Shown here one piece after another: positions 1,961 through 57,149 of a stretch of DNA of 64,000 nt. Source of the DNA: Eledone cirrhosa. Its lineage: Eukaryota. The notes below the pieces were generated by a model. That model was not told the DNA's origin and ran no database searches. It saw nothing but the letters and a program-made list of their open reading frames with translations. How positions within the stretch are numbered: position 1 is the stretch's first letter; every line of letters starts with the position of its first letter. The DNA is taken from contig OZ024740.1 of the NCBI GenBank assembly GCA_964016885.1, positions 179,428,001-179,492,000 of the forward strand, given 5' to 3'. The translations under genes were made by a program, and so were the position numbers.

Positions 1961-3770
1961 TTGGGAGAGTCATGTTGCAATAAACAACATACGCACCAGG
2001 TGTTTCACTTCAATTTATTATAAATTTCATAAATTTTATGAATTTCTGGTTGGTTGGTTCTACAACCGGATGGTTGTTTATATATTGTCAAAATTCTTTT
2101 GTCACATGTGATGTTGGGATGTTGCTATTCCATTCATGTTTTCTATTTAATTTTGGTTGGAGTTCATTTATGTTTATTGCCTCTGCGATTTGTCTAAGCA
2201 TTGCGTCTTTTCTGTGTGTAGATTCTATTTTTATCTCTATATTCTCTAATTTGCTTTTATGTTCTATTTTAGAATGTTGGTGGAGTATTGATGAGTCTTT
2301 TCCATCTTGGAGTTCTCGCCAGTGTTCATTTAATCGTTCTCGTATGCTACGAGCTGTCGCACCTATGTATATTATATTCTTATTTGTATATTGTCCCTCA
2401 GTACATCTTATGCTATAGACTATGTTTCTAGTTTTACAGTTAATATGGGGGCTTAGCTTACAGGTTATGAATTTCCTATCTATACAGGGAGGTCTTTGAA
2501 AAGGGTATGTATTAGTGTTTTTATGGAGGTACCTGGTCTTCCCACTATCTTAATATTTAGTTTAAGTTTATCTTGGGCCCTTCTGAATTTGTAAGCTAGT
2601 TCACCTCTAGGGGTTGTATTGATACACTCTGGTATTTATTGCTATCATACCATGAGTTTATTTTATTATTCCTAGTTCTTTCTATTCTATTCCAAAATTT
2701 GTTCCTATACAAGGGGCAGGTTCCATTTGTATCATTATTTACCATTTTTTCCTGTTTGATTCTGGCTTCTCTATATACCCTGATTTTATCTCTCTGATTG
2801 TAGCCAGAGAACTGCATACGGTGGATGAAGTGTTGTATGTGTCTTTCTAATTCTTTGGGGTTGCACATGTGGGACACGTTTCTCATCACCATTACTAAAT
2901 CCGTAATCAGTATGTTGATTTTGGTGTGATCCGAAACAGCTGAGTTTCGGTGGACCAGGTATTTGAAAGTCATAGGTTTGGCATAATGGGAATGGAGGAT
3001 TTGTTTTTTTTTTATTAATAGTTTCTAACCAGAGCTCTGTGTCTAGTACAGGTAAACGATGGCTGGGTGTTTGCTTGGGTAGTCTATAGTAACTTTGATG
3101 CTCTGGTGGATGGAGTTAGCTGTTTACTGGATAATTTCCATTATGCTTTTCTCTAATTCCTGACTGTTCTCAATTGTGTTTTTTTTACTACGATGTTTAT
3201 ATCATCAACGTGGCAGGAGTACATAATCAGGGTTAAGAGGTTGTTGTCTTCTAATTGTTTCTTTAAGTTTATTGTCCCACCATACCATGAATAGGTTAGC
3301 TATGTCACCTGCAATGCTAACACACACATAGAACAAACAACTAACTAGTAACATGTAAATAAACAAATAAATAAAATAATAAAAACACACACAGACACCC
3401 GGATGTAACACATGCATTAACTAAGCACACAACACACACAAAAACAAGATGGCGTAGGACAGAACAAAGGAGAGGCACAAAACAAAGAAAAGAATCGCCA
3501 TTCACTGAAGAGGTCACATAATGTGTGAGGAAAGAACTTTGACAATATATGAACAACCATCCGGTTGTGGAACCAACCAACCAACCGGAAATTTATAAAA
3601 TTTATGAAATTTATAAAATTTATGAAATTTATATTTATAAAATTTATAATAAATTGAAGTGAAAGCAACTGGTGCGTGTGTTTCTTATTGGCAACATGAC
3701 CCTCCCAAAGTATAACAATATTGGTTTTAACACACATTTTCAGATAAAGAATCTTGCTAAACAAATTCAG
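1961..3770 (-). mobile_element. 5'-truncated, degraded Penelope-like element with inverted pseudo-LTR
   Basis: Minus-strand translations give RT motifs (VSIAGDIANLFM, HVDDINIV), a thumb region (ORF 2596-2973) and GIY-YIG (NIVYSIRC..IYIGATARSIRERLNEH). 1961-2105 is inverted relative to ~3525-3710. Flanked by (TA)n. Confidence 0.85.
3501..3543 (+). ncRNA. Minimal type I hammerhead ribozyme motif (slightly degenerate) in pLTR
   Basis: UUCA CUGAAGA G GUCACA UAAUG UGUGAG GAAA GAAC UU UGAC; the sister copy at ~15844-15886 (-) has full stems I and II but core CUAAAGA. Confidence 0.7.
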
Positions 3771-13998: not shown

Positions 13999-14329
13999 GT
14001 TATTTTATGTGGAATAATGTGTAAGATAAAGAAAAAAAACCAAATAATATTTAAATGAAATGATAATATTTGTCAGAATGCAGACAATATTAAATAAAAT
14101 AAATCAACCTTATATAAATTTGTAACATATTGTTTGCTACTGACAGATAATGTTTAGATTGAGCTTAATTTGTATGGTTTCTAATTCTTACACAAAGAAA
14201 TAATTCATTCAGAACACAAATTTTACATTAAATATATAAATAAATGCTAACAAAAAATATTGGGTTCTTAGTTCACTATGACAAAAAATTGGACTAAAAA
14301 ATATCATATGTATATATGTATGTATGTGT

Positions 14330-14861
14330 AATCTCTTTCTCTTAATTTCGAGTATATTTTTTTGACCGGCAACCTTCTTGGTGGCAAGGTTGTAAAAGAA
14401 AAGAAATTGACATCCCTTGAATCGCAAGAATGTTTTGCAAATTTTGAAGGTGCCAGCTATCGCAGCCATTTGTAGACTATGAATTAGGGAGCTGCGCTCT
14501 CTGTCCGCAAATCCAAGTTCAGTCATACTTTGGTCCGTGCGGGTTGGTATATAACCCGTAACTCCAATAATGATGGGTATGAAGCTAATGGTGTATCTTG
14601 GATACTGGATTTGTAAACTCCTCATCAATGGTCCGCAGATGTCCTCCTTCTCCTGTATTTTTCTGACAACGTTTATATCAAGTGGGCAGCTGATCTCCAC
14701 GACAGAATACGTTTTCAATGTGTGGTCCAAAACAAAAATATCAGGCCGTTTGTGCTTTAATTTGGTGGCAGTTTTTATTTTCAGGTTCCACCAGTATTCC
14801 TTAGTGCCATCTGTCTCAATATATCCTTCCTCGTTTGTTGTTAATTTTGTTTGTTGTTAAT
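14330..14861 (-). mobile_element. 3' fragment of an R4/Dong-like (RLE-type) non-LTR retrotransposon
   Basis: Minus strand EYWWNLKIKT..KHKRPDIFVLD..VVEISCPLD (RPD..E restriction-like endonuclease); homologous to 50590-50960. Confidence 0.85.
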
Positions 14862-16480: not shown

Positions 16481-17619
16481 TAGCATATATAAGTATATCT
16501 ATAAATATAGGGAAAATACCAACATACTGAGCCACTTATTTGATATCTGGAATTGCGTGGTATATTAGTGAACGGGTTCTTATTTTCAAATTTGATATAG
16601 AAAACATGTCTGAAGTTTGTTGCATCATATATATATCTCGTTTTGGATAATATAATTCAAATTTCATCATGTAATGCCGAGATATCATATATATATTTAG
16701 AAAACAAAATTCCCTAACGAAATTCGTATTGATTCGAGATCCAATATTCAAGCCAGTATAATTTTATTAAGTCAGACTAAGAGAGGATCAATCATTGTTA
16801 CTTGCCAACAATCTGACAACACTGTTTCTTTAAGAATTTAAGAATACTTGGTGTCTGAATTATGTTAAAAAATATATTGCTTTATTGGCATTGAGTTATA
16901 CACTTTCGTATTTTTGAAATTATAATTTGATAGCAATGTTTGACGAGGCAATAGAGTATAAAACTGAGGTAACGATGTAAAAAGTCAGCTAAAATTCAAC
17001 GTCAGTGTTATCTACATTTAGTTTAGAATCATTTCACTCTAATGTTATGTAATCAGCTCGTTAAACATTTTCACAAATTCTGGGCTACGTGATGCCGATG
17101 TTTCGGGTCAGATCGTCGCACCTTCCTACATCTGGCCCCTTTCTAGTTATTTTCCAATGCCTCTGTCACTTAGCCAACATGTTTTCTCTGAAAGGAGACA
17201 CATGGTAAGCTCAATTATGAAACGTATATCTATAAGAAATATATATATATACACGCAAAAAACGTGCAGACAAAAGCGTATGCAAGCACATCTACACACA
17301 CAGGATGCACATATATACGCATATATGCCTCGCCCCATGTATATCTAATCACGCGCACGCACGCGACTGTATACACACTCGCACACACAGACACACACAC
17401 ACACACACACATATACATGCTTATATACACACGCACACTTACACATCCATACGTTCGGTACGTACACACACACACACACACACACATACATATACTCACG
17501 CATATTGACCTGTTTGCATGCACACGCATAAAAATGTGGATGTAAAAAAAAAAGGAAGAAGAAAAAAACAAAACAAAAAACATAGATGTAAAAACACAGA
17601 TATAAAGACACATACACAT

Positions 17620-17701
<82 letters not shown>

Positions 17702-17979
17702 GCACGGGCGCGCACATACGGAAGCGCTCGTGTACATATATAGAAAGTATACACACATTAAGGCGTTCAGACACATAGATACAGGGTGTAAAAAACTTGT
17801 GGAGAAGTAAGTACACATATAAAATTATAAGATTGGCTGCGAAAATATAAAAAATAAAAATATCTGGAGTGGAAAACGCAAGTGACCTTTAAAATCAGTT
17901 AGTCAAGAAAATAGGGAAGTAAAAAGTGGAAAGTGAAGATATTAGGTAAGTGAATCGGAGAATAAAGGGGGGAGGGGTC

Positions 17980-19565
17980 CCTTAAAGATCACAAACCCGA
18001 CTTTATTAATCGTCCTAGTTGTAGGTTAATCAACCTTGCTAAGACTGATATTGGTCTTGCCAGCAAAACATTTTAAAATAATATAAATACACACATTAGA
18101 AGTAAGTCTAAATTACTCCAATGGATAAATAGCTCTTCCGTAGTACATTGGTTTAATAATATTAAAAACAAAAATAGTTCTAGATTCACCCAATTTGACA
18201 TTGTAGATTTCTACCCATCTATCACTCAGACCCTTTTAGCGAAAGGTTTACTAGAAGGTTTACTAAGAAGAGAATGTCATCTTGCGCGCTAGAAACACTC
18301 TACTCTTTACTGATAATGACACTTGGGTAAAAATATCTAACCCAGAGAACCCATTCTATGTCTCAATCGGCTCTTATGACAGTGCTGATGTTTGTGATTT
18401 GGTCGGCCTATTCCTCCTACACACACTTAAAGAAAAATTCCCTAACCATATTTTTGGGCTTTATCGCGACGATGGTCTAATACTTTCCCATACCACCATA
18501 GGCCATAACTTATATAGATTAAGGAAAGACTTAATAAAAACCTTCGCTAGTTTTAATCTTAAAATTACTATTGACACTAACCTTTCCAATGTATATTTCC
18601 TAGATATAAACCTAGATTTGCCTACTGCTTCTTATAAACCATACCATAAACCTAATGAAAACTTAAAATATATAAATAAAGGCTCTTGCCATCCTCCTAT
18701 AGTTTTTAAAAACCTTATCCCTAATATTAGCCGTAGGATCTCCACCCTCTCTTCCTCAGAAGCTATTTTTAATAAGGCATCCCCCTACTATAATAAAGCC
18801 CTCCAAAATAGCGGTTTTAGCGAACCGATTAAATACATACCCAACTATACTAACTCTATTAAACATAAAAACAGGAAAAGAAAAATAATCTGGTTCACAC
18901 CCCTCTACTCTCTAGCAGTTAAAACTAATGTAGGCAAAAAATTCCTAGAGCTCCTAGATAAACATTTCCCTAGAACACATAGATACTATAAGATCTTTAA
19001 TAGAAACTGTGTCAAAATTAGCTATTCCTGCGGTCCCCCTATTAAGTCCTATATCATCAACAAAAAATCACCTAGAGAACATCAAAATTGCTCCTGTAGA
19101 ATCAAAAGTGAATGCCCATTACGAGGTAAATGCAACACCAAAGCCATTGTATATGCGGCTAAAGTGACAACCATCAGCAACAACCATCCAGCCACCAGTG
19201 AACGATATGTGGGTATGACGCAAGACAAATTCAAAACGCGTTATTACTCACATGTCGCATCCTTTCGACATCCAGAAAAAAGATTTACAACAGCTCTGGC
19301 TAGCAGAATATGGGATTTGAAAGACCAAGGTATCCAATATAAATTGGATTGGTCAATTTTGAACCAATCTAAAGAATATGCAAGAGGAACAAGAAAATGC
19401 ACGCTCTGCATAAATGAAAAATATTGGATCTTGCAAAATCTTAATACACCAAAGACCTGTCTGAACACAAAGACGGAAATTTTCACGAGTTTCCCACACA
19501 TGAAATCACACCTGCAATCCAGCTCATATAAACTTAACACACTTTCAGATACTTATCCTCCATAA
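17980..19565 (+). pseudogene. PLE reverse transcriptase + GIY-YIG endonuclease (N-truncated; 427-aa open segment 18282-19565)
   Basis: [11 protein letters not shown] and QFDIVDFYPSI upstream with stop/frameshift; IGSYDSADVCDLVG, YRDDG, FLDI, Cys linker CSC..CPLRGKC, IVY..YVGMT..FKTRYYSH, CTLCINEK. The Cys linker is typical of Neptune-type PLEs. Confidence 0.92.
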
Positions 19566-19634
19566 ACTCTTATTATTCTCTTTATAACTACCCTTTCTGA
19601 TTTACTTTCATTTTTATCCTTATTATTAATTTCA

Positions 19635-19851
19635 TTTTTATTTTTATTTTTATTTTTATTTTTATTTTTATTTTTATTTTTATTTTTATTTTTATTTTTA
19701 TTTTTATTTTTATTTTTATTTTTATTTTTATTTTTATTTTTATTTTTATTTTTATTTTTATTTTTATTTTTATTTTTATTTTTATTTTTATTTTTATTTT
19801 TATTTTTATTTTTATTTTTATTTTTATTTTTATTTTTATTTTTATTTTTAT
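19635..19851. repeat. (TTTTTA)n hexanucleotide array inside the PLE 3' UTR
   Basis: Direct reading. Confidence 0.95.
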
Positions 19852-20166
19852 ATTTTAAATTTTTACTTCCCATCCACCAATAACCCCCACCCTCTTTATT
19901 CTCCGATTCACTTACCTAATATCTTCACTTTCCACTTTTTACTTCCCTATTTTCTTCACTAACTGATTATAAAGTTCACTTGCGTTTTCCACTCCAGATA
20001 TTTTTTAATTTTATTTTTTATATTTTCGCAGCCAATCTTATAATTTTATATTTGTACTTACTTATCCACAAGTTTTTTACACCCCGTATTTATGTGTCTG
20101 AACGCCTTAATGTGTGTATACTTTCTATATATGTACACGAGCGCCTCCGTATGTGCGCACCCGTGC

Positions 20167-20222
<56 letters not shown>

Positions 20223-20356
20223 ATCTATATGTATGTATATGTGTCTTTATATCCGTGTTTTTACATCTATGTTTTTTGTTTTGTTTTTTCTTCTTCCTTT
20301 TTTTTTTACATCCTCATTTTTATGCGTGTGCATGCAAACAGGTCAATATGCGTGAG

Positions 20357-20408
<52 letters not shown>

Positions 20409-21176
20409 TACCGAACGTATGGATGTGTAAGTGTGCGTGTGTATATAAGCATGTATACTTGTGTGTGTGTGTGTGCGTGCGAGTGTGTATACAGTCGCGT
20501 GCGTGCGCGTGATTAGATATACATGGGGCGAGGCGTATATGCGTATATATATGTGCATCCTGTGTGTGTAGATGTGCTTGCATACGCTTTTGTCTGCACG
20601 TTTTTTGCGTGTATATATATATATTTCTTATAGATATACGTTTCTTGTAGATATACGCGTGTGTGTACGCGTGTACCTTGTTTGTCTTCTTTTCTTTAAT
20701 TTTTTCTTTCTAAATTATTGTTCCATTTTTATAATTATATCGAAAATGATACTTTCTTTTAATTATTACACTCCCTTACCTCTTTTACTTCCGCATATAA
20801 GTGTACGTGCGTGTGGGTGTGTTTATACGCATGTCTTCATATTCTTATAATGTATCTATTACCCTATTTCTGTGTACCTGCCAAACAGAAAACCACATCA
20901 TGTCTGTCTGTAGTTGACAGATACACAGATACACTTACCCTAACACATATATTTACACACACTTTTTCACTATACGTATACATTTGTACATACACATATA
21001 TGTACATCTGTGAGCGTATATACATACATATACACACACCTAACTATATTTCTTGAAAGATTTTTATATATTTCATATGGCTATTGTAATTCATTTGTCT
21101 ATATTTATATAATTTTTTTTTTTTTTTTTTGCTTTTCTTGATGAGACTTTCCAAGTATTTAGCCATGTTTTATATA

Positions 21177-21248
21177 GCCTCGTCTGACGAACGAATCAAG
21201 ACGTTTCTTTCGTATTCGCCTCATTCGGGAAACCTCTGGTAATGAGGT
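21177..21248 (+). ncRNA. Type I hammerhead ribozyme (canonical core)
   Basis: GCCUCGU CUGACGA A[CGAAU...AUUCG]G GAAA CC UCU GG UA^ AUGAGGU; 7-bp stem I, GUA triplet, predicted cleavage after 21241. Confidence 0.8.
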
Positions 21249-21273
21249 AATTATATTGTATTGATTTTTAGAC

Positions 21274-21358
<85 letters not shown>

Positions 21359-21361
21359 CGG

Positions 21362-21478
<117 letters not shown>

Positions 21479-22352
21479 AATACAAATATAAATTAGCGAG
21501 AATCGTTTTCAGCTCAGGAATTAACGAAAATCAACGTCCGATATGTGTGGCAAGCGCTCGATGAATCATATGAATCAGAGCTACAACATACGTTAAGGGC
21601 CAAATACACTGAGATGATGGTTAAACATATCATCCGCACAGCCAAAATCAAAACGACCAAGTAATTCGGGTCAAACAATAAAAATATATGTGTTGATACT
21701 TTCCCGGACCCTGGACTGATGGTAAAATCCAGTATTGGTTTCTGCGACTCCAAATCAAGTACTATCCGCCTACATAAAGAATGTTGGGCTTCTGGTGAGA
21801 TGATGAGCAAGGCAGTCGTGTTTTCAACGGGTTTTGCTCCAATATGCTATAGATAGTGTAGCTATTACTGACCCCTCGTGGGATTCAGCAAGGGAGGTAA
21901 CACCTCTATTAAGCGAATGATTCAGTTGTGTATTATTGCGAGAATGCAAAATATCACAAATCGAATAAAGCTCTCGACAGAATGATTAAATATAACAGAG
22001 CCATTCAACAGTCAATATAAGTAACTGAAAAAATCAATAAAATTAACTGCTCAATAGCTGGACTCTGGAGATTAATACAAATATAAATTAGCGAGAATCG
22101 TTTTCAGCTCAGGAATTAACGAAAATCAACGTCCGATATGTGTGGCAAGCGCTCGATGAATCATATGAATCAGAGCTACAACATACGTTAAGGGCCAAAT
22201 ACACTGAGATGATGGTTAAACATATCATCCGCACAGCCAAAATCAAAACGACCAAGTAATTCGGGTCAAACAATAAAAATATATGTGTTGATACTTTCCC
22301 GGACCCTGGACTGATGGTAAAATCCAGTATTGGTTTCTGCGACTCCAAATCA
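21479..22352. mobile_element. Unclassified terminally redundant non-coding element (595-bp unit + ~277-bp identical partial repeat)
   Basis: 21481-21757 repeats at 22076-22352; diverged homologue at 41492-42072; flanked by (TA)n. Confidence 0.85.
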
Positions 22353-22430
22353 TATATATATATCGGATATCTTAAAATGGTAAAATCCAGTATTGGTTTC
22401 TGCGACTCCAAATCATATATATATATATAT

Positions 22431-22742
22431 CGGATATCTTAAAATGCGGACGAAACCATGGTAGAGGTTACTAAATATGTTCACTTTTCTCCTAGTTTAT
22501 TTTACACCTAATTCTGTTTAGTTGACTGTATATCTGGTCGATTTATACAGGCTGTCGAAATACTCGATAAATACTCCGTCGCAACCACCGCGAAGGGCTG
22601 CTTTCGGTTATTTGTCGGAGATTTCTTCATAGGAGCCTTTATTCTTATAGCGTGGTCTAATTGATTTTTTATATTGTTCATTATGCTAATTGGGAGAGGA
22701 AACGGTATATATTTTATCTGGTGATTCTATAGACTTGTTTTA

Positions 22743-22745
<3 letters not shown>
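22431..22745. repeat. Unclassified dispersed repeat; second diverged copy at ~40965-41230
   Basis: Shared colinear blocks ACCTAATT, TTTCTTCA(T/C)AGG, TCTTATAGC, ATGCTAATTGGGAGAGGAAA, TATATATTTTATC..TGATTCTA. Confidence 0.7.
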
Positions 22746-22780
<35 letters not shown>

Positions 22781-22886
22781 GTTTGTATTTGTAAAGACAA
22801 AAGAATGCACGTATGGATATAGAATTTAAATGCAAATGCAAAAGATATTGTTGACAATTAGTCTTTTACCTTAAATTTGTTTAAAT

Positions 22887-22926
22887 ATCCTTAATTTTCG
22901 AGATAATATCTCTTCTTCAGAGGGAT
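22887..22926 (-). ncRNA. Minimal type I hammerhead ribozyme (canonical core) in the inverted pLTR
   Basis: AUCCCU CUGAAGA A GAGAU AUU AUCUC GAAA AU UA^ AGGAU; palindromic AAUU stem III. Confidence 0.7.
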
Positions 22927-23625
22927 GTAAAGTTGTTAAACCAGCGTTCTAAATAGCTTGCCAAGTCATGCTGACAGGAAATGGTATAGAGAATATGTTC
23001 TATCTCTAACGTCAAGGAGTGAAGGTTAGGTGGATAAAGAGTAGTCTCCCTTTAAAAGGGTTTTGTACATGTATGTTTAAGTGTGTGGGAGAATACGTGA
23101 AGGTGTAAGTATGTGTGTGTGTGTGTTTGAGTGTTAGAAGATATGTCTATACGTAAATGTGGGGGATAGATGCTCTATCGTGTTAAAACTGGTCTTTGTG
23201 TGTGTATGTGTGTTTGTGAGAGGGAATAAGTGGAGGTGTAAGCGCGCGCGTGTGTGTGTGAGTACGTGTGCGTGTGTGTGAGGGGGAGGGTGAAAGTATG
23301 GCGCTAGGTGCTCTAAAAAGTTATACATTGGGTGTTGAGTTCTAGTCTATCATTGAACATACATGTACAAAACCCCTTTTAAAGGGAGACTACTCTTTAT
23401 CCACCTAACCTTCACTCCTTGACATTAGAGATAGAACAGATTTTCTATACCATTTCCTGTCAGCATGACTTGGCAAGCTATTTAGAACGTTGGTTTATCA
23501 ACTTTACTTCCCTCCGAAGAAGAGATATTATCTCGAAAAAATCTTTTGCATTTGCATTTATATTCTATATCCAAGACTGCATTGTTTTGGCTTTACAAAT
23601 ATACACGTTTATACCTCTTTACACA

Positions 23626-26179
23626 ATGCTTCAAGTGAACTATAACTTCCTCCTCTCCTTACGCCTGAGCCAGGCCCAGTTCACAACTGTAAAGAAACTC
23701 TTCCAGCTATCTGAAAAGCGCGCCAAAGCTGGCTGCCAATAAACTTCCTCAAACGATGCCTGAATAACAACATCAACCCCCAAACTATCAAAAACTTGCA
23801 CCTACCAACATGCTTCAAATCACCAGGCCTCAAACGATCACTTAGTTACATACAAACATTCTGCCTAAGAAAACTCATACAACACCAACACCGCACGCTA
23901 CAACAACACATACGGACTATTTCCAGCCTTGTACCACAACTCGCTGCAACCCCAGAAACTCTGCCCAGAGTTATCTCCGCCGCTATAGACAGGTCATACC
24001 ACCATCGCCGAGACTACGAGAAAATACGCATAACGCAAACATTTCTCAAACTCAGCACGGCTAACCGTCTTAACAACAACCCAACTCTAAGCACCAACAG
24101 AGGCGAACAAGAGGGTACCAACGCCGAACCTAGCGGCGCCCCGACGAACAACACACCTGACGCAAAACACCTCGTCACAGACTTGACAGGATCCCTCTCC
24201 GAGAGGAATTAGACCTCCTCAGCCTGGGTCCCAAGTGCATATTGAAACAGAGACTGGACGACAAATTATGGCTCGACATAGAAAGAATTTCTATCGGGCT
24301 GCCTATCAACTAAAATAGATATCGACTCTCGCAAACAACACAACGGAATCTAACAAACCCAGATTCCTGATATACCAACTGGATCGCCCACTCTGTCCAC
24401 CGCCTGCCAACCGCGAGCTTGAAGAAAAACTCTCGAGGCTAAAACATTCCGTATTTAACATCTTACGGAAACAGCAGAAACCTCTCCAGGACACAACTCG
24501 CCCTGAAGAATCTACGGAATAGGGAACTTATATACTTACCATCCGGCAAAGGTAAAGAGTTTTGTATCATCTCTCAAACCACATACAACAACCTAGCCTT
24601 TGAACACCTAAGCGACAATGAACTATATACAGAGATCCCGGACATGACTGCTGCCCAGATCGAAAAACAGGCCAACTCCATCTGGTTCGACATCTGTAGG
24701 AGAAGACAACTCCCAAATAAAGTTAAGCTCAACTACACCACTAGAAATAACAGACTGCCCACTTTCTACCACCTCATCAAGACCCACAAGAATAGTACTA
24801 AGACACAAATAAGACCCATTGTTTCTAGCATAGAAGGACCCCTATACACAATCTCCTGGCTCCTCTCCCAGGTCCTCAAGCCTCTAGTCTCCACCTTTCC
24901 CGGGCACGTCAGTAGCTCCGTCGAAGTCATACATAGAATACACCAACTCCAACCAGGTCAACTTGAACTAAATAGATACGCCTTTAGCCTCGACGTTGTC
25001 TCCCTCTACACTACAGTCCCCGCTCATCCAGCTGTCGATTTATTGAAGGACTGCGTGGTTGCAGAGGACATCCACTGCTACGGCCCCCATCCGACGGACA
25101 TACACCAGCTTTTGTCCTTCACAGTAGACAGAACGTACTTCACCTTCCACCACCACACATACAGACAGACAACAGGATTACCCATGGGATCCAGACTATC
25201 GGGCCTGCTGGCCATCATCTATATGAACCAGCTAGACTGCCGAGCTCTCAACACCTGCCATTCCCATACCTTCTTCACCCGATATCTAGATGACATACTC
25301 ATCCTTACATCATCCCATGAGAAGGCGGATCAAATATACACGACATTCTCCAGCATGGACGCTAGTATAGAGTTCAGCATGGAACAGCCCGATGACCGCG
25401 GATCCTTATCCCTACTGGACTTCCAACTCAGGTTTACAGAGGAAGGCAACATCCATACCTGCTTCTATAAAAAAGCTGCCAGCAGGGACCTGTTTGTACA
25501 TTTCAGATCGCCCTCCCAGCCTGCGCTAAGTTCTGATACATAAGGAACGAATTAACACTTAACCGGAACAAATCCACTGACGCTGGAGTCCGAGACACAC
25601 CCACCACACATTTCCTGGAAGTACTCAAACTGAACGGATATACGACGTCCACCACGAACCGTGCCAGAAAGAACAGAGGACACCACACCCGAGGCATTAA
25701 CACCTGCTTCCTGAAGCTCCCACACTTCAGTGAGGAAACAACAACAGCCATCCGCAGAGCTATCAGACGAGAGGGACTAGATGTCCAACTAGCCCACTCA
25801 GGACCTTCTCTATGCGGACGGCTAACCAAACGACACTCCACCAGACATGACAGCCGCTGCAGGCTAGCCAACTGCCCCACTAACGACACAGACCTATGCC
25901 ACCAGGCTTACGTCGTATACAGATTAGAGTGCGACAAATGCAGCAATTTCTACGTAGGTAGCACCACCATACCACTTCACATAAGAATAAAAGGACACCT
26001 CAATACTAACGCTTCCTCATTTAGCGAAATGCAAAAACACCGACAACAACAGAGCAGTTACGATAGAAACTAAGAAAAGAAACCTAGGCAATCTTAGAAT
26101 TAAGGAAGCACTGATTATAGACAAAACACAACCACCAATCAATAATAGACGAGAACTCAACACCCAATTTATAACTTGA
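23626..26179 (+). pseudogene. PLE ORF (RT + GIY-YIG) broken by several frameshifts and stops
   Basis: MLQVNYNF start, NFLKRCLNN, LPTFYHLIKTHK, IRPIVS, SLDVVSLYT, QTTGLPMGS, RYLDD, LSLLD, VVYRLECDKCSNFYVGST..LHIRIKGH, RIKEALII..PPINN. Confidence 0.92.
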
Positions 26180-26584
26180 TAGAGCACTTAGCCCCATAAT
26201 ATCACCCCACCCCTCTTCCACACACTCACACGCACTCACACACGCACACACACGCACACAGACACACACACGCTTATACCTCCACTTATTCTCTCTCACA
26301 CACACATATACACACACAAACACCAGTTTTAACACGATAGAACATCTATCCCCCACATTTACGTATAGACATATCTTCTCACACACACATACACACACAT
26401 ACTTACACCTTCACGTATTCTCCCACACACTTAAACATACATGTACAAAACCGTTTTAAAGGGAGACTACTCTTTATCCCCCTAACCTTCACTCTTTGAC
26501 GTTAGAGATAGAACATATTCTCTATACCATTTCCTGTCAGCATGACTTGGCAAGCTATTTAGAACGCTGGTTTAACAACTTTAC

Positions 26585-26624
26585 ATCCCTCCGAAGAAGA
26601 GATATTATCTCGAAAATTAAGGAT
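26585..26624 (+). ncRNA. Minimal hammerhead, U4C variant (CCGAAGA), in the 3' pLTR
   Basis: Same fold as 22887-22926 with C at core position 4. Confidence 0.6.
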
Positions 26625-26773
26625 ATTTAAATAAATTTAAGGTAAAAGACTAATTGTCAACAATAACTTTTGCATTTGCATTTATATTCTATACCCATAC
26701 CTGTATTGTCTTGGCTTTACAAATACAAACGTTTATACCTGATTACACAATGCTTCAAGTGAACTATAACTTC

Positions 26774-40649: not shown

Positions 40650-41235
40650 ATATAATGAAGTACTTTAATAAAAGTAGCGATGCTGCTGTTCAAAGAATCT
40701 ATACCACAATAAAGGGAGGGGTGCGGGACAGCGTCCGTTTTATATTTTTAATCCCGTTAGTACAATAAGTTGGATTACTTTGAATAGATAATGAATGACT
40801 ATTACATAATTTATGTGCTAAATTTCGTAACTCTTGATGAAATATTAATAAATTTATTGCTTATTTAAAATTCAATTATTTAACATTTTAAAATTTCAAC
40901 ACTTCCGGTATATCGCCACCACCACTTCAGCTACCATATATATGTGTGTGTGTGTGTGTATATGCATTTTTTCTTCTAACTTTAATTCTATACCTAATTG
41001 TGTATGGTTGACGATATATTTAATCGATTTCCACGTGCTATTGAAATGATGGGTAAATATTCTATGGCTGTTGACAGCGAATAGATAGCTATCGTTTATT
41101 TATCTATTATTTCTTCACAGGTGCCTTTTAATCTTATAGCCTGGTTTAATTGGTTTTTTATGTGTTTGAATATGCTAATTGGGAGAGGAAATTGAGTATA
41201 TATTTTATCAAATGATTCTAAGGACATCATTTATA

Positions 41236-41331
<96 letters not shown>

Positions 41332-41491: not shown

Positions 41492-41496
<5 letters not shown>

Positions 41497-42069
41497 TAAA
41501 TTAGCGAGAATCGGACTTCGGCTAGTGGAAACTAGTGAAAAACAACTTCCGAATTGTGTGGCAAGCGCTCAATAGATACGAGTGTAGTAGAGCAATAAAA
41601 GCCAAAAAGCTAGCAAGCTATTCTGGTCAAACAAATAATGAAATATGATTGAAAAATTTACCCGGGCCATCGGAAATGGTGGTAAAATCCAGTATAGGGT
41701 TTCTGCAACTCCTAAATCAAGTACTGTCTGCTTAAACAAATCATGCTAAGCTTTTCGTATGGTGATCGAACAAGGATGTCACTTTTTCAACATGTATTTT
41801 GTTCTGTGCAAAGCTACGGATCTCGCCGTAATCTGAACGGACGTGCGGATTGAAAAGGGAGAGAACCCCTAGTTTTGGCGGATGAATTTAGTATGTGTGA
41901 TTATTGCAATATTGCAAAATATCGCAAAACGAATTAAGCTCTGACAGAATAGTTTTAAAAAATAAACATAAGCTATTAATTAGTCAATAGAATTAACTAA
42001 AAAAAATTAAAAAAATTAACTGGTTAATAGCTAGACTCTGGAGATTAATACAAATATAAATTAGCGCGA

Positions 42070-42072
<3 letters not shown>
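41492..42072. mobile_element. Second member (560-bp unit + 21-bp terminal repeat) of the unclassified family at 21479-22352
   Basis: Colinear conserved blocks; AAATATAAATTAGCG(A/C)GAATC at both ends; (TA)n flanks. Confidence 0.85.
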
Positions 42073-42126
<54 letters not shown>

Positions 42127-42134
<8 letters not shown>

Positions 42135-42499
42135 TAAGAGGAATTCCAACTTTGTCTGATTTACTCGTTTTATTTACAATCCTTTAAAATATATATAATG
42201 GTATTATAATGAAATAGTATGATAGAATATTAAATTCTAAGTGTTAATTGAACAAGTACTTTCATGCTTTCGCAATCTTCAGGTTCATGATATGTGGTGA
42301 CAGTCGAGTTTGCAATTTTCGACTGTCACCACATATCATGAACCTGAAGATTGCGAAAGCATGAAAGTACTTGTTCAATTAACACTTAGAATTTAATATT
42401 CTATCATACTATTTCATTATAATACCATTATATATATTTTAAAGGATTGTAAATAAAACGAGTAAATCAGACAAAGTTGGAATTCCTCTTATTAATATA
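42127..42499. repeat. Perfect palindrome: 181-bp arms, 11-nt spacer
   Basis: 42127-42307 is the reverse complement of 42319-42499; I saw no mismatch by eye. Confidence 0.95.
42339..42377 (+). ncRNA. Minimal type I hammerhead ribozyme; mirror copy at 42249-42287 (-)
   Basis: UGAAC CUGAAGA U UGC GAAA GCA U GAAA GUAC UU^ GUUCA; GNRA-capped stem II, palindromic AAGUACUU stem III. Confidence 0.8.
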
Positions 42500-42553
42500 A
42501 TCTTCTATACACAATCATACACACCCGTGTATATTTACCTATCTATATCTATC

Positions 42554-42586
<33 letters not shown>

Positions 42587-43265: not shown

Positions 43266-46200
43266 ACCAACAACAATTGGCAACAGATACACCAAACGTT
43301 CAGGGAGGAAGAAACAGGTCAATTGAAGGTCTGGCAAAGAATCCTACATATGAACTTTTCAAAGAGCAAACTGTCATTTCCATAATTCCACAATATAATG
43401 CATGCAGGGAGTCTCTTTGCCTCTGTTTGTGCGCACTGCAAAGCTTATCGCTGTCCACATGAAACGAAATCTCTGTGCTGATTCCAGGGAAAGTGAAACT
43501 TCCCCCAAGGAAACCATGATACGAGCTGAAAAGTATGAGGGTTTGTATGATGCTGTGGCTGAAGGAGATTCAGTAAATGCAAGTCAGATAATAGTTCTTC
43601 CTCCTTCAATCTATGGTTCCCCTTGCTTCCATAGTGAGTGCTTCAAGAATTCAATGACTGTGTTTCGACACATGAGAAAGCCATCTTATGTCATCACTGT
43701 AACATCTATCCCTAAATAGTTTGTACCCTGGGTCAGATTCTAGGGATCGTCCCGATATTTGTGCAAGAGTCTTCAAGATTAAGTATGACAGCCAAATGGT
43801 TGACATACTGAAAGCAAATGTCCTAGGAAAAGTTGTGGTTCATTCTGCTATAATATAGTGACAGAAACGAGGCCTCACTCATGCTCATATTCTGCTGATA
43901 ATGGCTGAAGATGGCAAGCCCCGAACTGCTGATGCCATTGATCAGGTAGTGCACTGTGAAATTCCTGATAAAGAGACCAATCCAATTCTGCATAAGATCA
44001 TCACATCCTGCAACATTCATGACCCATGTGGACAAGCTAATATGATGTGTTCATGTATGGAAGGGCTAGGACAACAACACCATTGCTCTAAATCTTATCC
44101 TAAGGTAATCAGATAAACCACATTTGTTGCCGAAAATTCCTTTCCAGAGTATAGAGGAAGGGATAGACAGAATAGTGGTCACACCCATACAATGCAACTT
44201 AAAGGTCCAGTATTTACTGTTGATAATCATTGGATTGTTCCATACAACTCTTTCCTCTCAATGAGATTCCAGTGCCACACCAATTGTGAGGTTGTCCACA
44301 GTGTCAAGGCTGTTAAGAACTTGTGTCCATGCGCAAATGAGATTGAGACCTATATCAATGCACGGTACATCTCAGCCAGTGAAACATTCTGGAGAATCTA
44401 TAAATTTCCGTTACATCATCGGAAACCGCCAGTTGAAAAGTGGCCTTTCCATTTACCTGAGAAACAAATAGTCGTGTATGAGCGAGGGCAGGAAGAAAGT
44501 GTTGTTTCTAGGGAACAGCCAATGACTAAGTTGACGGAATATTTTCCACTGAATATTAGAGACCCAGTTGCTCAAAACATATTGTATATTGATATTCCTA
44601 AATATTTCACTTGGACAAACAAAAAGTGGCAAAGAAGAAAAAAGGGACATCTGGATGGTGATCAACAATTTATGAGTGAATCTCTCAATAGACACCAATC
44701 TGAATTATATTATCTCAGGATGATCCTACATCACAAGCCTGGGTCAACTTAATACAAAGATTTGAGGAGAATTGAAGGGATTGAATTTCCCCCATTCCAA
44801 GAAGCATGCAGGAAACTTGGTCTGTTGGATGAGGATGGAGGAAAAGACTAAGCTATGGAAGAGGACTCGTCCATTACGCTTGGTCCTCAGCTACGAGAGA
44901 TCTTCTGCACCATTTTATTGTACTGCATGCCAAATGACCCTCTGCAGGTCTGGGAGAAATTGAAGAATTGTCTTGCAGAGGATACCATGCATGAACGTCA
45001 TGAACAAGTCATGTCCATGCAAACCGTGCAGATTGTTATACAGAAGATCAAACAAAGACTTCAACATTATGGCTTGGACATTCATGCCAACTGTGGATTT
45101 CCGCGGCCAGACCCAACTATTGTTGACATACCAGAAATCAACAGGATTCTTATGGTAGAAACTGATTTCGTCACACACCAACTGCAAGCAAACATAAATG
45201 AACTTCTGCTAACATTGAATACTGAGCAACTGGTTATATTTCACAAGGTAATCACCTCTGTAAATGAAAATGAAGGTAGAATTTTCTGCATGAATGCAAG
45301 TGCAGGCACAGGAAAGACCTATGTCATCAACCTCATATTGGATTACTTCCGATCTAAAGGTAAATTGCACTTGCCACTGCCATATCTAGAATAGCAGCTA
45401 ATTTGCTTCACAAGGGTCTAACTTTTCATTGCAAGGGCAAGATTCCTCTCAACGTGGGTGTTGAATCAACTTCTTCACTAAGCGGGATGCCACAGGTAAA
45501 CTTATGCAGCAATCTGACCTGCTAATCATTGATGAGATATGTATGCGACATAAGCAGATCTTCGAATGCCTTGACAGGATCTTCAAAGATGTTAACGGTT
45601 GCAAAGAGCAATTTAGTGGTCGAACAGTATTACTATCTGGTAAATTCTTGCAGTTGTACGTTATGGTGTTAGACAATAAATAGTTGAGGCAATCATCAAG
45701 AAATCTTATCTCTGGGACTATGTGGAAACCATGGAGATGACAACCAATCAATGGTTAATTAATGCAGAGGATTCTGATGAAAGGCAGTTTGCAAACTACC
45801 TTCTTGATGTGGGAAATGGTAAAATTCCAATTCTACCAACTGTAGGTGTATTCACAATTCTTCTGCCAAATGAACTTTGTCTGGCATATGGTAATGTGTC
45901 TGGACTGTGTGATTTTGTGTATACACATCTTCCTGGAAACTACACAAACCCACTATTGCTTGCAAATGGAGCCATTATCATTCCAACAAATGATATTTAA
46001 CAAGTTCCCTGGTGATGGAATAATCTACAGAAGCTTCCATACCGTTGATAATGAACTGCAATATCCAATTGAGTTCATCAACAAACTTACCCCATCAGGC
46101 TTCCCAACACACATACTTAAACTGAAGAAAGGGAGTTGCATCATGCTTTTGATAAATGTGGATCCTCTAAACGGGCATTGCAATGGTACCCGCTACATCA

Positions 46201-46526
46201 TCATCAGTTTACATAATCATGTAATTGAAGCTGAAATGGCATTGGGTCCCAATTCTGGAACAAGGTTGCCAATCTCAAGGATACATTTTCCGTCAACAGT
46301 TTCATCACTTTTCCATCTCCATTATCGCCTTTTTTTAAAAATGTATCATGGATTGCTTTACTGATTACAAAAGTTAGTGTAACACAGTCTTTTTTCAGTT
46401 TATGTGCACATTGTCAATTTACTTTTCAATTTACGCATCATATCTATATGCATATATATTTGCGTATATCAATATGAGCACTGTAGATGCTAGCAGAAAA
46501 CCGTCCCGGGGCGGTTACTCTGCTAG
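43265..46526 (+). mobile_element. Degraded Helitron B (Rep + Pif1-type helicase) nested in Helitron A
   Basis: IVLPPSIYGSP, QKRGLTHAHILL (HUH), DNHWIVPYN, ARYISASETFWRI, Walker A ASAGTGKT, LIIDEI, LKLKKG..MLLINVDPLNGHCNGTR; 3' hairpin and CTAG|T at 46523-46527. Confidence 0.92.
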
Positions 46527-48260: not shown

Positions 48261-51179
48261 AACACGTGCTACAGGTGACCATGCTACTAGACTTCCTAGC
48301 AGCCAGGTCGAACAACTATGCCTGTAAGAAACTTGACACCACCTGTACCATCTAAGTCTACCTCGAATGGTGGGGAAAACACTATCGATAATAATAATAA
48401 TCGAAGAAATAATAATAATAATCGATGAAATTTGACACCACATGTACCATCCGAGTCTACCTCGACTGTTGTGGAAAATAATATCGATAATGATAATAAT
48501 CAAAAGTATAAACAATTGAAAGTTTTCCCCAACGAAATCTTCCAGAGAGAAATTAATTCATGTATAAATATCTCTCTTGCTGAACGTATTAAAACGACAA
48601 TGTTTAATAAAAACCAAATAATGAAATATAACGTGTTATTGACGAAATAGGGAATGAATATTTACGACGGATAAAACCCCCAACATTTTGGCAAATCAAC
48701 GCCTGTTTATATGCCTTAGCAACGATATTGAAGCATTATCTTGGTGATAGCAGAGGTATTAACAAGAACAGAACACCACCAAAAATACCATCATGTATAA
48801 CTAAACTAGAAAAATAGATTGCTGACCTTCAAAAAACCATAGAATATGTGACAATGTTCCTTACATGCAAACAAACACAAAAAAACCTCACTCCTCACCA
48901 ACAAAGAGTGAAACATAAAATAGAGACGATGTTTGGTAACAGTAGAACCAGAATTCTTCAATATAAGCTGATCACCCTCAAACAAGAATTGAGAGCTGTT
49001 AGCGAAAAACGCCGATACCTGAAGAAGGTCGATGAGAGAAAACTGCGTTGTCGGAGGTGAGACAACTTAGGAGGAATATGGCTACAGTCTGGCTGCACTA
49101 CAGGAAAGCTTTCGAATCTGTTCCCCACTCGTGGATGATAGAGGCCCTCCAACTTGCTAAAGTCCCAGACATTATTGTCAGAGCTATAGAGAGGCTGTCT
49201 TCCTCTTGGGCTACTATCTTAAGGTTAAAGACAGAGAGGGAGGACTCTATTTTCACTGATAAAATAAAATATCGCAGAGGTATATTTCAGGGAGACAGTC
49301 TCTCTGTGATATTATTCATCTTGTCATTAAACCCCTTGTCCTTTCTGCTCAAGAAGTCTGAGGGATACATCATTGGCTCACAGGAGAACAGAAGTATGAA
49401 CCTTACCCATAATTTCTTTGTGGACGACCTGAAACTCTATCCCAAGAACATGGATAGGATGAAGAAAAATCTTGACCTGATTACAACTTTCTCAAAGGAT
49501 ATAGGAGTTTGGCGAAGATAAATGCTCATATATGACTGTAAAGCGGGGAAAAGCAACAACCCAATCTAGCAACATTGTCATCAATGGCCTAACTTTTTCA
49601 TCGATATCTGATGAGGACTGCTACAGATACCTGGGGATAGATGAGAACATATCCTGTAATGGTATCTGTAATACGGAACGCATAACCAGGAAATACTACA
49701 CCCCGATTAAGAAAGATTTGGTCATCGGAACTCTCTGCGCAAAACAAAACAGCGGCTCACAATGTGTTTGCTGTGCCGGTCCTAACACCAACGTTTGTAA
49801 TAACAATTGAACGATAGACGAAATCCGAGCAGTTGATGTTGTTACTCGAAAAATACTAAACAACACCGGAGACTTCCACACAACAGTGACATAGACCGAC
49901 TTTACTTGAAACGTAAGCAGGGAGGCAGAGGCCTAACATCAGTCCAGACAGCATTTAAATGTCGCATCATATCTCTCCGACAGCATCTACGAACCTCGAA
50001 GCGTAGGAGCCCGTCTATTGAGCAAGTCTATCTGCATGAAAGAGATGAGATCATGAGAGTAGGGAAGGAACGCGTCCAGAGATATTCCCTGTGTGATAAT
50101 CAAAAAACTTACACCCAGGGAAGTCGCTCAACAGTATCCCAGTGAATCCATGGATGAAAAACTGCATGCCTATCAACAAACAATAATGCATGGATATGTG
50201 GCCAGGAAGCTCCAGAGTGAGAGTAATATACATAAGGAAAGTAGTCTGTCTTGGACCAACAACCGCTATATTGGCTCCCACTTTGAAGGATACGCTTTTG
50301 CAATCCAAGAACAGGAGATTAACACGAAATACCTGATTTACAAATGAGAGAGGGATGCATAAAAACCTAGATGTGATAATAAGTGCAGACTCTGCAGAAC
50401 TAACATCGAGGATATCACCCATGTTATGCGCAGCTGTCCAAAGATGTCATCGACATACTATCTACCTATGAGGCATGATGGATGTAGTGGCCAAAACACT
50501 GTACAATGCAGTTCGTAAAAAAGATAGCCCCGATAATAAACACAGTATAAGCTACAGCAATGTGTAAGACATCCATGTAGATAATATAAAAGAGTACTGA
50601 TGGAATGTTCCAATAAAAACCCCAATAAAATGCAGGCATGACAGACCAGATATTATGTTATGGGGCAGGGAGAAGAAAGCATGCACAGTAGTGGAAATTA
50701 GCTGCCCAGCAGATGCCAATATAATATCAAAGATTAGTGAGAAGGAGAATATTTATGCAGAACTGATGAGAAATCTGCAGATACCCCACCCTGATTACAC
50801 CTTCAGATTATGTGTGTGATTATTGGGGCACTGGGTTATGTTAGTAACTGCCTCAATACAAATCTTGAGAAGCTAGGCTTCACAGGAACAGAAAGAAGAC
50901 AACTAGTTAGGAAACTACAAGTACAATCCATTAATGGAACAGTAAAAAATGTAAAACATTCCAAACATTTTACAGATACAAAGCATATACACATGCACAC
51001 ATACAACTCAAAACATCCACATCCACACATACAATGACATCCATATCTACACATGCAGGCATGCATACATAATCTACCTAGTTGATGTTTATAAATTCCA
51101 AAGAGAGAGTCTAGTGTCTATGTTAGAAACCGACTCTCTCTCTATTGGGAAAAAATTGTGAAATTATAAAACCAGAAGA

Positions 51180-55003: not shown

Positions 55004-55255
55004 GCCAATGACATATGCAGACACATGTAAAGCCAATGACATATGCAGACACATGTAAAGCCAATGACATATGCAGACACATGTAAAGCCAATGACATAT
55101 GCAGACACATGTAAAGCCAATGACATATGCAGACACATGTAAAGCCAATGACATATGCAGACACATGTAAAGCCAATGACATATGCAGACACATGTAAAG
55201 CCAATGACATATGCAGACACATGTAAAGCCAAAGACATATGAAGACACATGTAAA
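55004..55255. repeat. Minisatellite, 9 x 28 bp (GCCAATGACATATGCAGACACATGTAAA)
   Basis: 8 identical units and 1 with two substitutions; no spacers. Confidence 0.97.
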
Positions 55256-57149
55256 GCGAAAGAAAAGCAATAATGATAATAATTAGAAAAATATAAAGGA
55301 CATGAATAACAGCCAAAATTATGAACAACGCCAACCACAAAGAAACATTAAACAATTGAATTACGTCGATCAAAAACATAGCACCGGCAATATGTCAGCC
55401 ATTAAAAGGTGTTGTATTACAACATTGGTGAACAAGAAAACAGTGGTACGTAACGAATAGTATTGAAAAATATCTTTGTAAACAATCAATATGGATTCAT
55501 ATTTACATTCACAATGTGTAGTGTAGAATATAAATATATATGATGGGTAGAGAAACAACTTATAGAAGTAGGTTAGCATGACATAATATAAGCTGCCCAC
55601 AACATAAATTTATTGAGGATCTAAAGGAATTAAATGCCACAGCACAACATGTAAGTTTCAGAAATCATTTAGAGTAGTTTCCTTCCAACAGAAGTTGATG
55701 AGTGTAAATTTCAAGCATACTATAAAGATTGATATGCCATTTCTATCGAAATAAATTTCCGCGCAGATATAAAATGTTATGTTGCCAAATACATTAATAA
55801 TCTTTAATATCTACAGCAATATAATGTTCTGTTCAATACCAACAGGATTAGGTTCTGGGTTTTTGAAATTGTTAGGTGATTTTCAGTCGAGTAACTGTCA
55901 TGAGGCTTCGCCAACCACGCAACACACTCATACATACACACTCATACATACACATACATTTACACACGCACTCACACACATACACACAGGCTTGAATACT
56001 AATAGGACTTTTACGTTTCAAGATTTAATTCCATAACGATAGCATTTGCTCATAGTTTTCTTCCATAATTTTCTTCGGTGAAGTCGAATATTAGAGGAAC
56101 TTTATTTATTGAAAATAAATCGAACATTAGAATAAATACATCATTGTAATTAATTGGCGGAGAATTTTCAGAGTCATTAGAACGTGGGATTTAATGCCGT
56201 GTCTTAACTGATCCGGTTCTCTGCATCGCCTAACTTCACATCCTTCCCAGGAAAGAGAGGGATCTGATGTATTCCGACCTGATGAGAAGGTAGACTTCGC
56301 CAGGTGTAAAATGACCAAGATACACCATATATCACAATGGCGCCCATATCAATCATAAGGAGTGACAGCTCTATACATTTGTTGTTCAAGAGATATCATG
56401 GTGAGTAGAAGGAGGTAATGATGGAGGATTAGATTCGGAAATAGGTTCCAGAATATAGTAGAGATCATATGAGACTACGACGAACCAGCATTATCTTCTG
56501 ATCATATTCAAAATTATAATCTCTTGCATTTTCTTGCATTATTCATAATTACTCATTATAATATGTTATAAGATTTCTATATAATATATAATTCAGTCAA
56601 AATTTCAATAAATTGTTTTATAATTTATGTGTTCGTTTTATGATTATCATGGAAACATTTATTAGTAAATAATTCCAAATGTGGCTTTCGTATTCTGTAT
56701 GCGAAACTTAATGGGGAAACATAAAATTAAATATGAGAATGAAACAAAACATTCATAAAATTGGTGTATGAATATAGTGACAGTGAGAGAAACAGAGGGA
56801 GGGCGAGAGAGATATAGGGGGAACAAGAATTATACAGGTACATAGTATAAATAGTCTAATAGGTTGAGCATATAAGCCCCCTGGACAAGGATAAACTTTA
56901 TTGAAATCTTTTCCATTGCCAGGAATTTATATGCTCATCGTGGACTATTTTTCATAATTAAAAGTGTCGGAGGTACTAACTTTTTTTTACTATAAAGATT
57001 CGAAACCCCATACCCACGCGGTGGTTAAAACTATAAATTAATTTTAGAAATATATATATGCACAGATTCAAAGAGATCAGAGAAAATAACAAAATCGGAT
57101 AATGATCTCTGTCCCTGATTCCTCTTATACCGTGTACATTCATGTATGT

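Follow-up and report, generated by a model that had tools for sequence, protein, structure and literature searches.

Non-LTR retrozymes of metazoans are non-coding, AT-rich tandem units that carry one type I hammerhead each, range from monomers to multimers, co-occur with PLEs and are expressed as circular RNA, according to the sections of two sources drawn on here (PMC7229834; bioRxiv 10.64898/2026.07.22.740005). The preprint proposes that retrozymes derive from a PLE pLTR, and in the consulted part of PMC7229834 the mobilisation of animal retrozymes and the use of circular templates by PLEs are proposed, not shown. An architecture with a fixed 3' end, variable 5' ends, tandems and inversions is described for PLEs themselves (PMC8557442, in part). 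Among these, Hydra-clade PLEs target (TA)n and show a fixed 3' end, 5' truncation, partial tandems and inverted 5' joins (Craig et al., 2021; PMC8557442). Putative non-autonomous Chlamys elements, MRC1 among them, form pLTRs and multicopy head-to-tail insertions; in the consulted text they usually have 3' sequence in common with their autonomous partners, and a canonical hammerhead is missing from most Chlamys elements (PMC8557442).

The hammerheads of such elements are not uniform. A U3-A8 pair in place of C3-G8 is a natural active variant (Perreault, 2011; PMC3088659) and is also present in schistosome PLE hammerheads, where the Cercyon PLE variant is listed among minimal motifs that mostly occur singly (PMC4209133). 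In the supplement of PMC8557442, as far as it was drawn on, hammerheads of Hydra and PLE-X elements with extra bases flanking helix II are classed as canonical.

Here, a 64,000-nucleotide stretch of the Eledone cirrhosa genome (GCA_964016885.1, contig OZ024740.1, positions 179,428,001 to 179,492,000; hereafter the window) was analysed, which holds two copies of an element that is probably a non-LTR retrozyme with a variant hammerhead and not the bearer of a new ribozyme class (Table 1). The element resembles metazoan retrozymes in several genomic features: its units are non-coding and AT-rich, lie head to tail without LTRs, range from monomers to multimers, co-occur with PLEs, and carry in silico one type I hammerhead each, with a variant core. 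Unit length falls within the 51-972 bp of the preprint and above the 150-450 bp given in the consulted part of PMC7229834. The element differs in its non-canonical U3-A8 core with large inserts, in a helix III that is stable as a monomer, and in a ribozyme predicted to be self-blocked, which that part of PMC7229834 presents as unusual for animal retrozymes. Furthermore, when it was compared with three PLE families, homology was detected neither to their pLTRs nor to other parts of them, and its RNA circles are putative, being suggested by genomic arrays. The (TA)n target and the insertion architecture are those of Hydra-clade PLEs, and extra bases on both sides of helix II are likewise found in PLE-X1_cBra (C...A) and in many Hydra elements (U...U); however, those are autonomous and bear a canonical CUGANGA, whereas the element lacks an ORF and has no sequence homology to the local Hydra family. 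With the schistosome variant it shares U3-A8 and an extra nucleotide 5' of helix II, but it sits in a retrozyme, spans ~120 nt from core to cut, contains subdomains of ~70 nt and ~30 nt and tolerates U3-G8. It is like the putative Chlamys elements in being non-autonomous and in its multicopy head-to-tail insertions, but those tend to have 3' sequence in common with a partner.

The element in the window and its genomic family

The first-pass annotation had described a 595-bp unit followed by an identical 277-bp partial repeat; the unit stands, and the repeat measures 279 bp (282 in register). This second pass includes the cut site and lacks the first half of the core. The diverged second copy with its short terminal repeat was also recovered, at 74% identity to copy 1 over 473 nt, with 21-26 bp repeated; its 560 nt compare with a 612-nt lineage B consensus, owing to one ~55-nt internal deletion. 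Both copies lie in (TA)n with a common left boundary, and the conserved sequence blocks reported earlier are present. Terminal redundancy, seen in both window copies, is not a constant feature of the family, since unit length is attained by 16 of 68 copies sampled by a 3' motif. The non-coding character holds, the longest ATG ORFs being 22-82 aa in 12 full-length lineage consensi. A near-perfect palindrome of ~500 bp with 233-nt arms (42075-42575) abuts the 5' side of copy 2.

An Rfam search had been suggested as a check, and covariance models run on lineages A-D at the gathering threshold and at E<=10 returned low-complexity or chance matches only. No ribozyme family of Rfam 15 was among them, the hammerhead motif described below escaped both thresholds, and no tRNA-, 5S- or 7SL-derived head of the kind that defines a SINE was found at four loci, even at E<=10. 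HDV-like, twister, twister-sister, pistol and hatchet motifs, compared by eye, are not conserved in the element.

The element is a real high-copy family, with more than 7,000 copies by exact-motif count in the 3.0-Gb genome and about 20 lineages. Two independent exact motif patterns gave 5,572 and 7,236 matches, the second leaving out the youngest lineage, D; the reversed patterns gave 0 and 2. Lineages A, B, C and D were recovered by DNA searches with four seeds. Mean copy-to-consensus identity is 99.3% in A, 94.4% in B and 96.6% in C, and the three consensi are mutually 75-78% alike. Clustering at 90% of 56 sequences (44 position-ordered copies and 12 seeds) yielded 22 clusters. In a metagenome scan, none of the 80 pattern matches tested with flanks, out of 120, fitted the family profile. 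No title or abstract in the searched full-text literature, a scope outside which subscription papers, Repbase and Dfam lie, describes this family or such a retrozyme.

Several other repeats accompany the element. A diverged family (70-95%) that ends in (TA)n occurs at 22485-22777 and 40969-41268 and at about 20 fetched loci; it has no hammerhead by descriptor and could be a further PLE-mobilised element. Many copies also have in their flanks, next to (TA)n, a short recurring element that contains a strong inverted repeat (flanks of L230, L250, L252, L259, L323, L508). Non-LTR retrotransposon fragments lie at 14209-14856 (minus strand) and 49036-49521 (plus strand), the second with an RVT_1 match, and a 28-bp minisatellite of 9 copies with 99% matches lies at 55004-55257. 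Broken ORFs at 44117-46364 (plus strand) are presumably pieces of a Helitron Rep/helicase.

Table 1. Features of the element and its neighbours, in window coordinates.
Feature	Position	Strand	Remarks
Truncated Hydra-type PLE	18267..21275	+	RT-endonuclease ORF piece at 18267-19565 and a long 3' UTR; from the candidate helper family
Canonical CUGACGA hammerhead of this PLE	21184 and 21241	+	C3 at 21184, H17 at 21241
(TA)n target microsatellite	21276..21478	.	Common to copy 1 and the Hydra-type PLE 3' end, tail to tail
Full unit, copy 1, lineage A	21479..22073	-	595 nt; fixed 3' end at 21479
GACCCG box, conserved	21667..21672	-	Can pair with stem I 3' strand; predicted off-switch
Variant type I hammerhead, copy 1	21702..21832	-	Descriptor match, local fold, family alignment
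Copy 1 hammerhead, first half	21832..21821	-	Stem I 5' 21832-21828; U3 21827 to A9 21821
Copy 1 hammerhead, second half	21742..21702	-	G12 21742; C17 21707; stem I 3' 21706-21702
Copy 1 predicted cut	21707/21706	-	GGUC^CGGG
5'-truncated second pass of copy 1	22074..22352	-	279 nt, identical to first pass
39-nt local duplication	22377..22415	-	5' junction of copy 1
Decayed copy 2 (lineage B)	41492..42072	-	560 nt plus 21-26 nt of repeat
Copy 2 hammerhead region, broken	41657..41799	-	U16.1 to C, stem I mismatch; descriptor fails

Polarity, ends and insertion pattern

Across copies the left (plus-strand) end is constant and the right end varies, so the RNA sense is the minus strand, on which the element has a fixed 3' end and is truncated at the 5' side. 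Folding scores are lower on the minus strand in lineages B and C (z of -3.1 and -3.3, vs -1.6 and -2.8 on the plus strand; 12 shuffles each), and neither strand reaches significance in lineage A (-0.6 minus vs -1.3 plus; 12 shuffles each). The long stem has G-U pairs on the minus strand where the plus strand would have A-C. In the 68 copies sampled by 3' motif, the 3' end is followed by (TA)3 or more in 60, and 5' ends vary. Dimers, an inversion (L037) and a chimera of lineages A and C (L010) also occur. The insertion features of PLE mobilisation are present, namely a fixed 3' end, 5' truncation, partial tandems, inversions and a microsatellite target. The earlier proposal of a non-autonomous element is supported, and the element is very probably mobilised by a PLE.

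PLE RTs start internally, as demonstrated for an anole element (PMC11167929, in part), which accounts for the fixed 3' end. The unit junction is the start of reverse transcription, not the predicted cut. In the 3'-terminal ~120 nt of the unit (21479-21600, minus strand), conserved hairpins lie beside this fixed start: AAC-N4-GUU, GCUC/GAGC with a covarying stem, and CGA-UWC-UCG. They are a candidate PLE protein-binding or initiation signal.

A predicted variant hammerhead within the unit

The first-pass annotation had found no CUGANGA core, which is literally correct, and had suggested an undescribed ribozyme near the unit junction. Instead, a UUGANAA...GAAA...GUC core was found in mid-unit, so that the candidate ribozyme is a type I hammerhead of variant form, with its predicted cut ~230-250 nt from the fixed end. 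On the minus strand, stem I (R-C-Y-Y-G) is followed by UUGA-N-R-A, one extra base and helix II, which closes a branched insert of ~70 nt; an extra A and GAAA come next, then helix III (ACCC/GGGU) closing a ~30-nt hairpin, then C and CGGGU. The three helices stand round the core in type I order, U3-A8 replaces the canonical C3-G8, and helices II and III bear large inserts. One extra base on each side (A/C and an invariant A) keeps helix II from lying directly beside A9 and G12. In the local Hydra PLE the cut is ~35 nt from the end, which would suggest a hammerhead at the 3' junction of the element too, but this was discarded since GAAA is missing there in lineage D.

The invariant core (U4, G5, A6, A9, G12, A13, A14, A15.1 and U16.1, with H17) is found in the family and is intact in copy 1; copy 2, in which U16.1 is mutated, is not matched by the descriptor. 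A set of 27 copies was picked with a motif that lies away from the ribozyme. In these, 239 of 243 cells at the nine invariant positions are kept (98%, vs a background of 76.5%), N7 can be any of the four bases, and the core is fully intact in 21 copies; in the BLAST set the core is intact in 68 of 82 copies. The 3-8 pair, among 30 aligned rows, is UA in 24, UG in 5 and CA in 1, so that the canonical C3-G8 is absent, and no covariation back to C-G was seen.

The named helix pairs are 89.4% formed, with 27 double changes, in 30 cluster representatives; two more, which have internal indels, were excluded, and the rows were located by core near-matches and hence are not unbiased. None of 500 shuffles, which ignore relatedness, scored as high, and slid controls reached 22-53%. 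Double changes fall mostly in helix II, with few in stems I and III. RNAalifold, run unconstrained, recovered the three-way junction from the family alignment. The helices covary, with relatedness ignored, and the strand that folds is the minus strand. A relaxed hammerhead descriptor matched 12 of 20 lineage consensi in sense, none of 20 in antisense and 4 of 2,000 shuffles; eight of the 20 fail the strict descriptor. Local folds lacked the junction in one of seven (L232). In copy 1 the local minimum-energy fold is the three-way junction, yet it is no more stable than shuffles (z -0.3), and the first pair of helix II is an A-C mismatch in lineage A, which is nevertheless young and abundant. 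When whole units were folded (6 of 20), the probability of stem I was 0.00-0.56 in nascent transcripts and at most 0.03 in monomers or circles, where the downstream GACCCG box competes for the stem I strand (pairing probability 0.01-0.82 in circles).

The hammerhead is predicted with good confidence to be an active ribozyme. The strongest competing explanation, which we regard as unlikely, accepts a PLE-mobilised element and takes the hammerhead-like fold as vestigial or as a structural RT-binding site, with arrays formed by read-through or linear template jumping, without circles. The weak stem I in whole units and the mismatch at the base of helix II favour it, as does the anole PLE, whose hammerhead was not required for insertion in vitro and whose protein was needed for cutting, in the part of PMC11167929 consulted. 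Against it stands the exact conservation of the catalytic positions while N7 is free.

Truncation at the predicted cut

A further argument against a vestigial fold is the accumulation of 5' ends past the predicted cut. Among 89 lineage D insertions, 74 had a closed 5' end (L542 was dropped for an N flank), and 15 ends fall in the 24 nt after the cut, one of 25 bins, where 3.2 would be expected (Poisson p 1.5e-6). The bin that follows is more AT-rich and empty, and one insertion (L463) ends exactly at the cut. In the independent 68-copy set, with coarser boundaries, 45 nt hold 21 ends vs 6.2 expected; this pile-up was noticed before lineage D was tested. We infer run-off from a cleaved linear RNA, trimmed to the nearest TA-like bases, as the explanation, and stalling of the RT at helix III could be an alternative cause.

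Tandem arrays and the RNA template

For lineage D, 757 termini and 1,423 internal junctions were counted. The 20 top-scoring loci are spread over many chromosomes and contain 1.4-13.5 near-identical 615-nt units each; 19 end at a common 3' base and the remaining one in an N gap, and their 5' ends are scattered. Further arrays have 15-16 units, and one has 18 junctions (~19 units). Comparison of 32 arrays (243 units) with the reference unit gave 125 differences common to all units of an array and 42 singletons, and recurrent same-site differences occur in four arrays. Array L198 carries a G>T at nt 308 in 5 of 13 units, not adjacent to one another, and breaks off at nt 309; the units of L192 have T, T, C, A at nt 231. 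Repeated passes over one damaged template base would explain both patterns, for which gene conversion or assembly error are alternatives. Array length drops with divergence from the youngest variant, older lineages being short, which may reflect later collapse or better circle formation in the young variant. The lineage D end-to-start joint was also found in short-read contigs of two runs from one sample, which may be the assembly's own.

Array-private variants and recurrent errors are best explained by rolling-circle reverse transcription, as expected of that process, and the RNA template is likely to be circular. This agrees with the multimeric intermediate first proposed, which is probably circular. 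Array-private variants would also be expected from read-through of an existing array, as in the explanation without circles; the two-base errors at one site in L192 and the stop beside the error site in L198 fit one molecule re-read.

Satellite-like expansion of monomer-plus-partial insertions by unequal crossing-over or gene conversion is much less probable. It is an acknowledged route to satellites (bioRxiv 2026.07.22.740005, in part), and both L545, with its block-like CCTTT variant, and L531, where a 1-nt deletion is mosaic, are in keeping with it, but the longest arrays are the youngest, are identical across chromosomes and share a 3' base in 19 of 20 cases, and short older lineages are the reverse of gradual expansion. 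Least probable of all is RNA processing by an undescribed self-cleaving motif near the unit junction, the idea first put forward, for which the conserved 3'-terminal hairpins could speak, given that junction sequences vary between lineages, 5' ends of lineage D are not in excess there, the most conserved block is accounted for by the hammerhead core, and the fixed end is accounted for by the internal start of PLE RTs (PMC11167929, in part).

Candidate helper elements

Two PLE proteins of the window gave 85,704 and 15,878 first-look genome candidates. The PLE that shares the microsatellite with copy 1 belongs to a family with open frames of ~719 aa and junctions of the same kind as those of the element, ending in (TA)n ~35 nt past its canonical hammerhead. 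Its linker and endonuclease motifs match, by eye and with no tree, the Hydra rows of Craig et al., and an assignment to Neptune was therefore rejected. The family (L091-L120) is very abundant and young, with an unusually long, microsatellite-filled 3' UTR of ~1.3-1.7 kb; its hammerhead has an enlarged helix II, and an inverted truncated copy lies at 17219-17978. Head-to-head joins of the element to a Hydra-type ORF within 40 nt occur at 3 of 305 flanks in this PLE-rich genome. One is at 0 nt (L120); the others (L070 and L499) involve a second Hydra-type family, and the PLE piece at L499 is decayed and so may predate the insertion. The proteins of this second family (L499/L070 flanks) and of a third Hydra-type family (L009 flanks) are about 53% and 43% identical to those of the main family. 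Of 17 PLE ORFs near 5' ends, 15 are inverted, an orientation count that was set aside because long 3' UTRs bias it. On balance a Hydra-type PLE is somewhat favoured as the helper.

Other PLEs are present as well. The family at 2088-3024 (minus strand; L121-L150), to which the 15,878 candidates belong, has a CX4CxxC linker of the Nematis/Neptune type and a fixed (TA)n end, ~190 nt from which lies a hammerhead with the canonical core CUGAAGA; one copy of the element (L071; 1 among 233 flanks) joins its 3' UTR. A decayed Penelope-type element at 22774-26737 (RT 24443-25543, GIY-YIG 25537-26073) is surrounded by long inverted repeats. A Naiad partner was rejected, as short element motifs are absent from the Naiad and Hydra consensus text of PMC8557442 that was available; the Chlamys part of that text has four chance 10-mer matches. 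A long insert in L038 was also rejected as a partner. It is a ~1-kb fragment of an RTE-like LINE (L038:2097-3105) with a short-repeat tail, placed at a retrozyme junction with a few bases duplicated.

Proposed mechanism and implications

The reading that we consider probable is that minus-strand RNA of a non-LTR retrozyme is cut at the variant hammerhead, circularised and copied into (TA)n by a PLE enzyme, probably of the Hydra clade. Transcription of tandem or terminally redundant copies would come first. The hammerhead, on the evidence of folding and conservation in silico, would fold once CGGGU is made and cut at GGUC^CGGG. The GACCCG box is then predicted, with support that depends on the lineage, to take the stem I strand and turn the ribozyme off in the monomer or circle. 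A PLE endonuclease would nick (TA)n, and the RT would start at the observed fixed end, ~230-250 nt downstream of the cut. On a linear cut RNA, run-off near the cut would leave the ~240-nt stubs seen in the genome; on a circle, rolling reverse transcription would give the observed arrays of 1-19 units with random 5' ends.

A bolder proposal, put forward tentatively and with rather less than even confidence, is that this family may be the founding member of a group of large-insert, U3-A8, self-silencing hammerhead retrozymes that screens for CUGANGA would overlook. Its youngest arrays would record a Hydra-type RT rolling up to ~19 times round one circle, with the same errors made again at damaged bases and with run-off at the cut where the template is linear. 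A young lineage with long identical arrays, a predicted cut site that coincides with a truncation hotspot and a candidate helper clade make the model directly testable. Furthermore, a family of thousands of copies can escape both Rfam and screens that look for CUGANGA and short helices, so retrozyme counts are probably underestimates.
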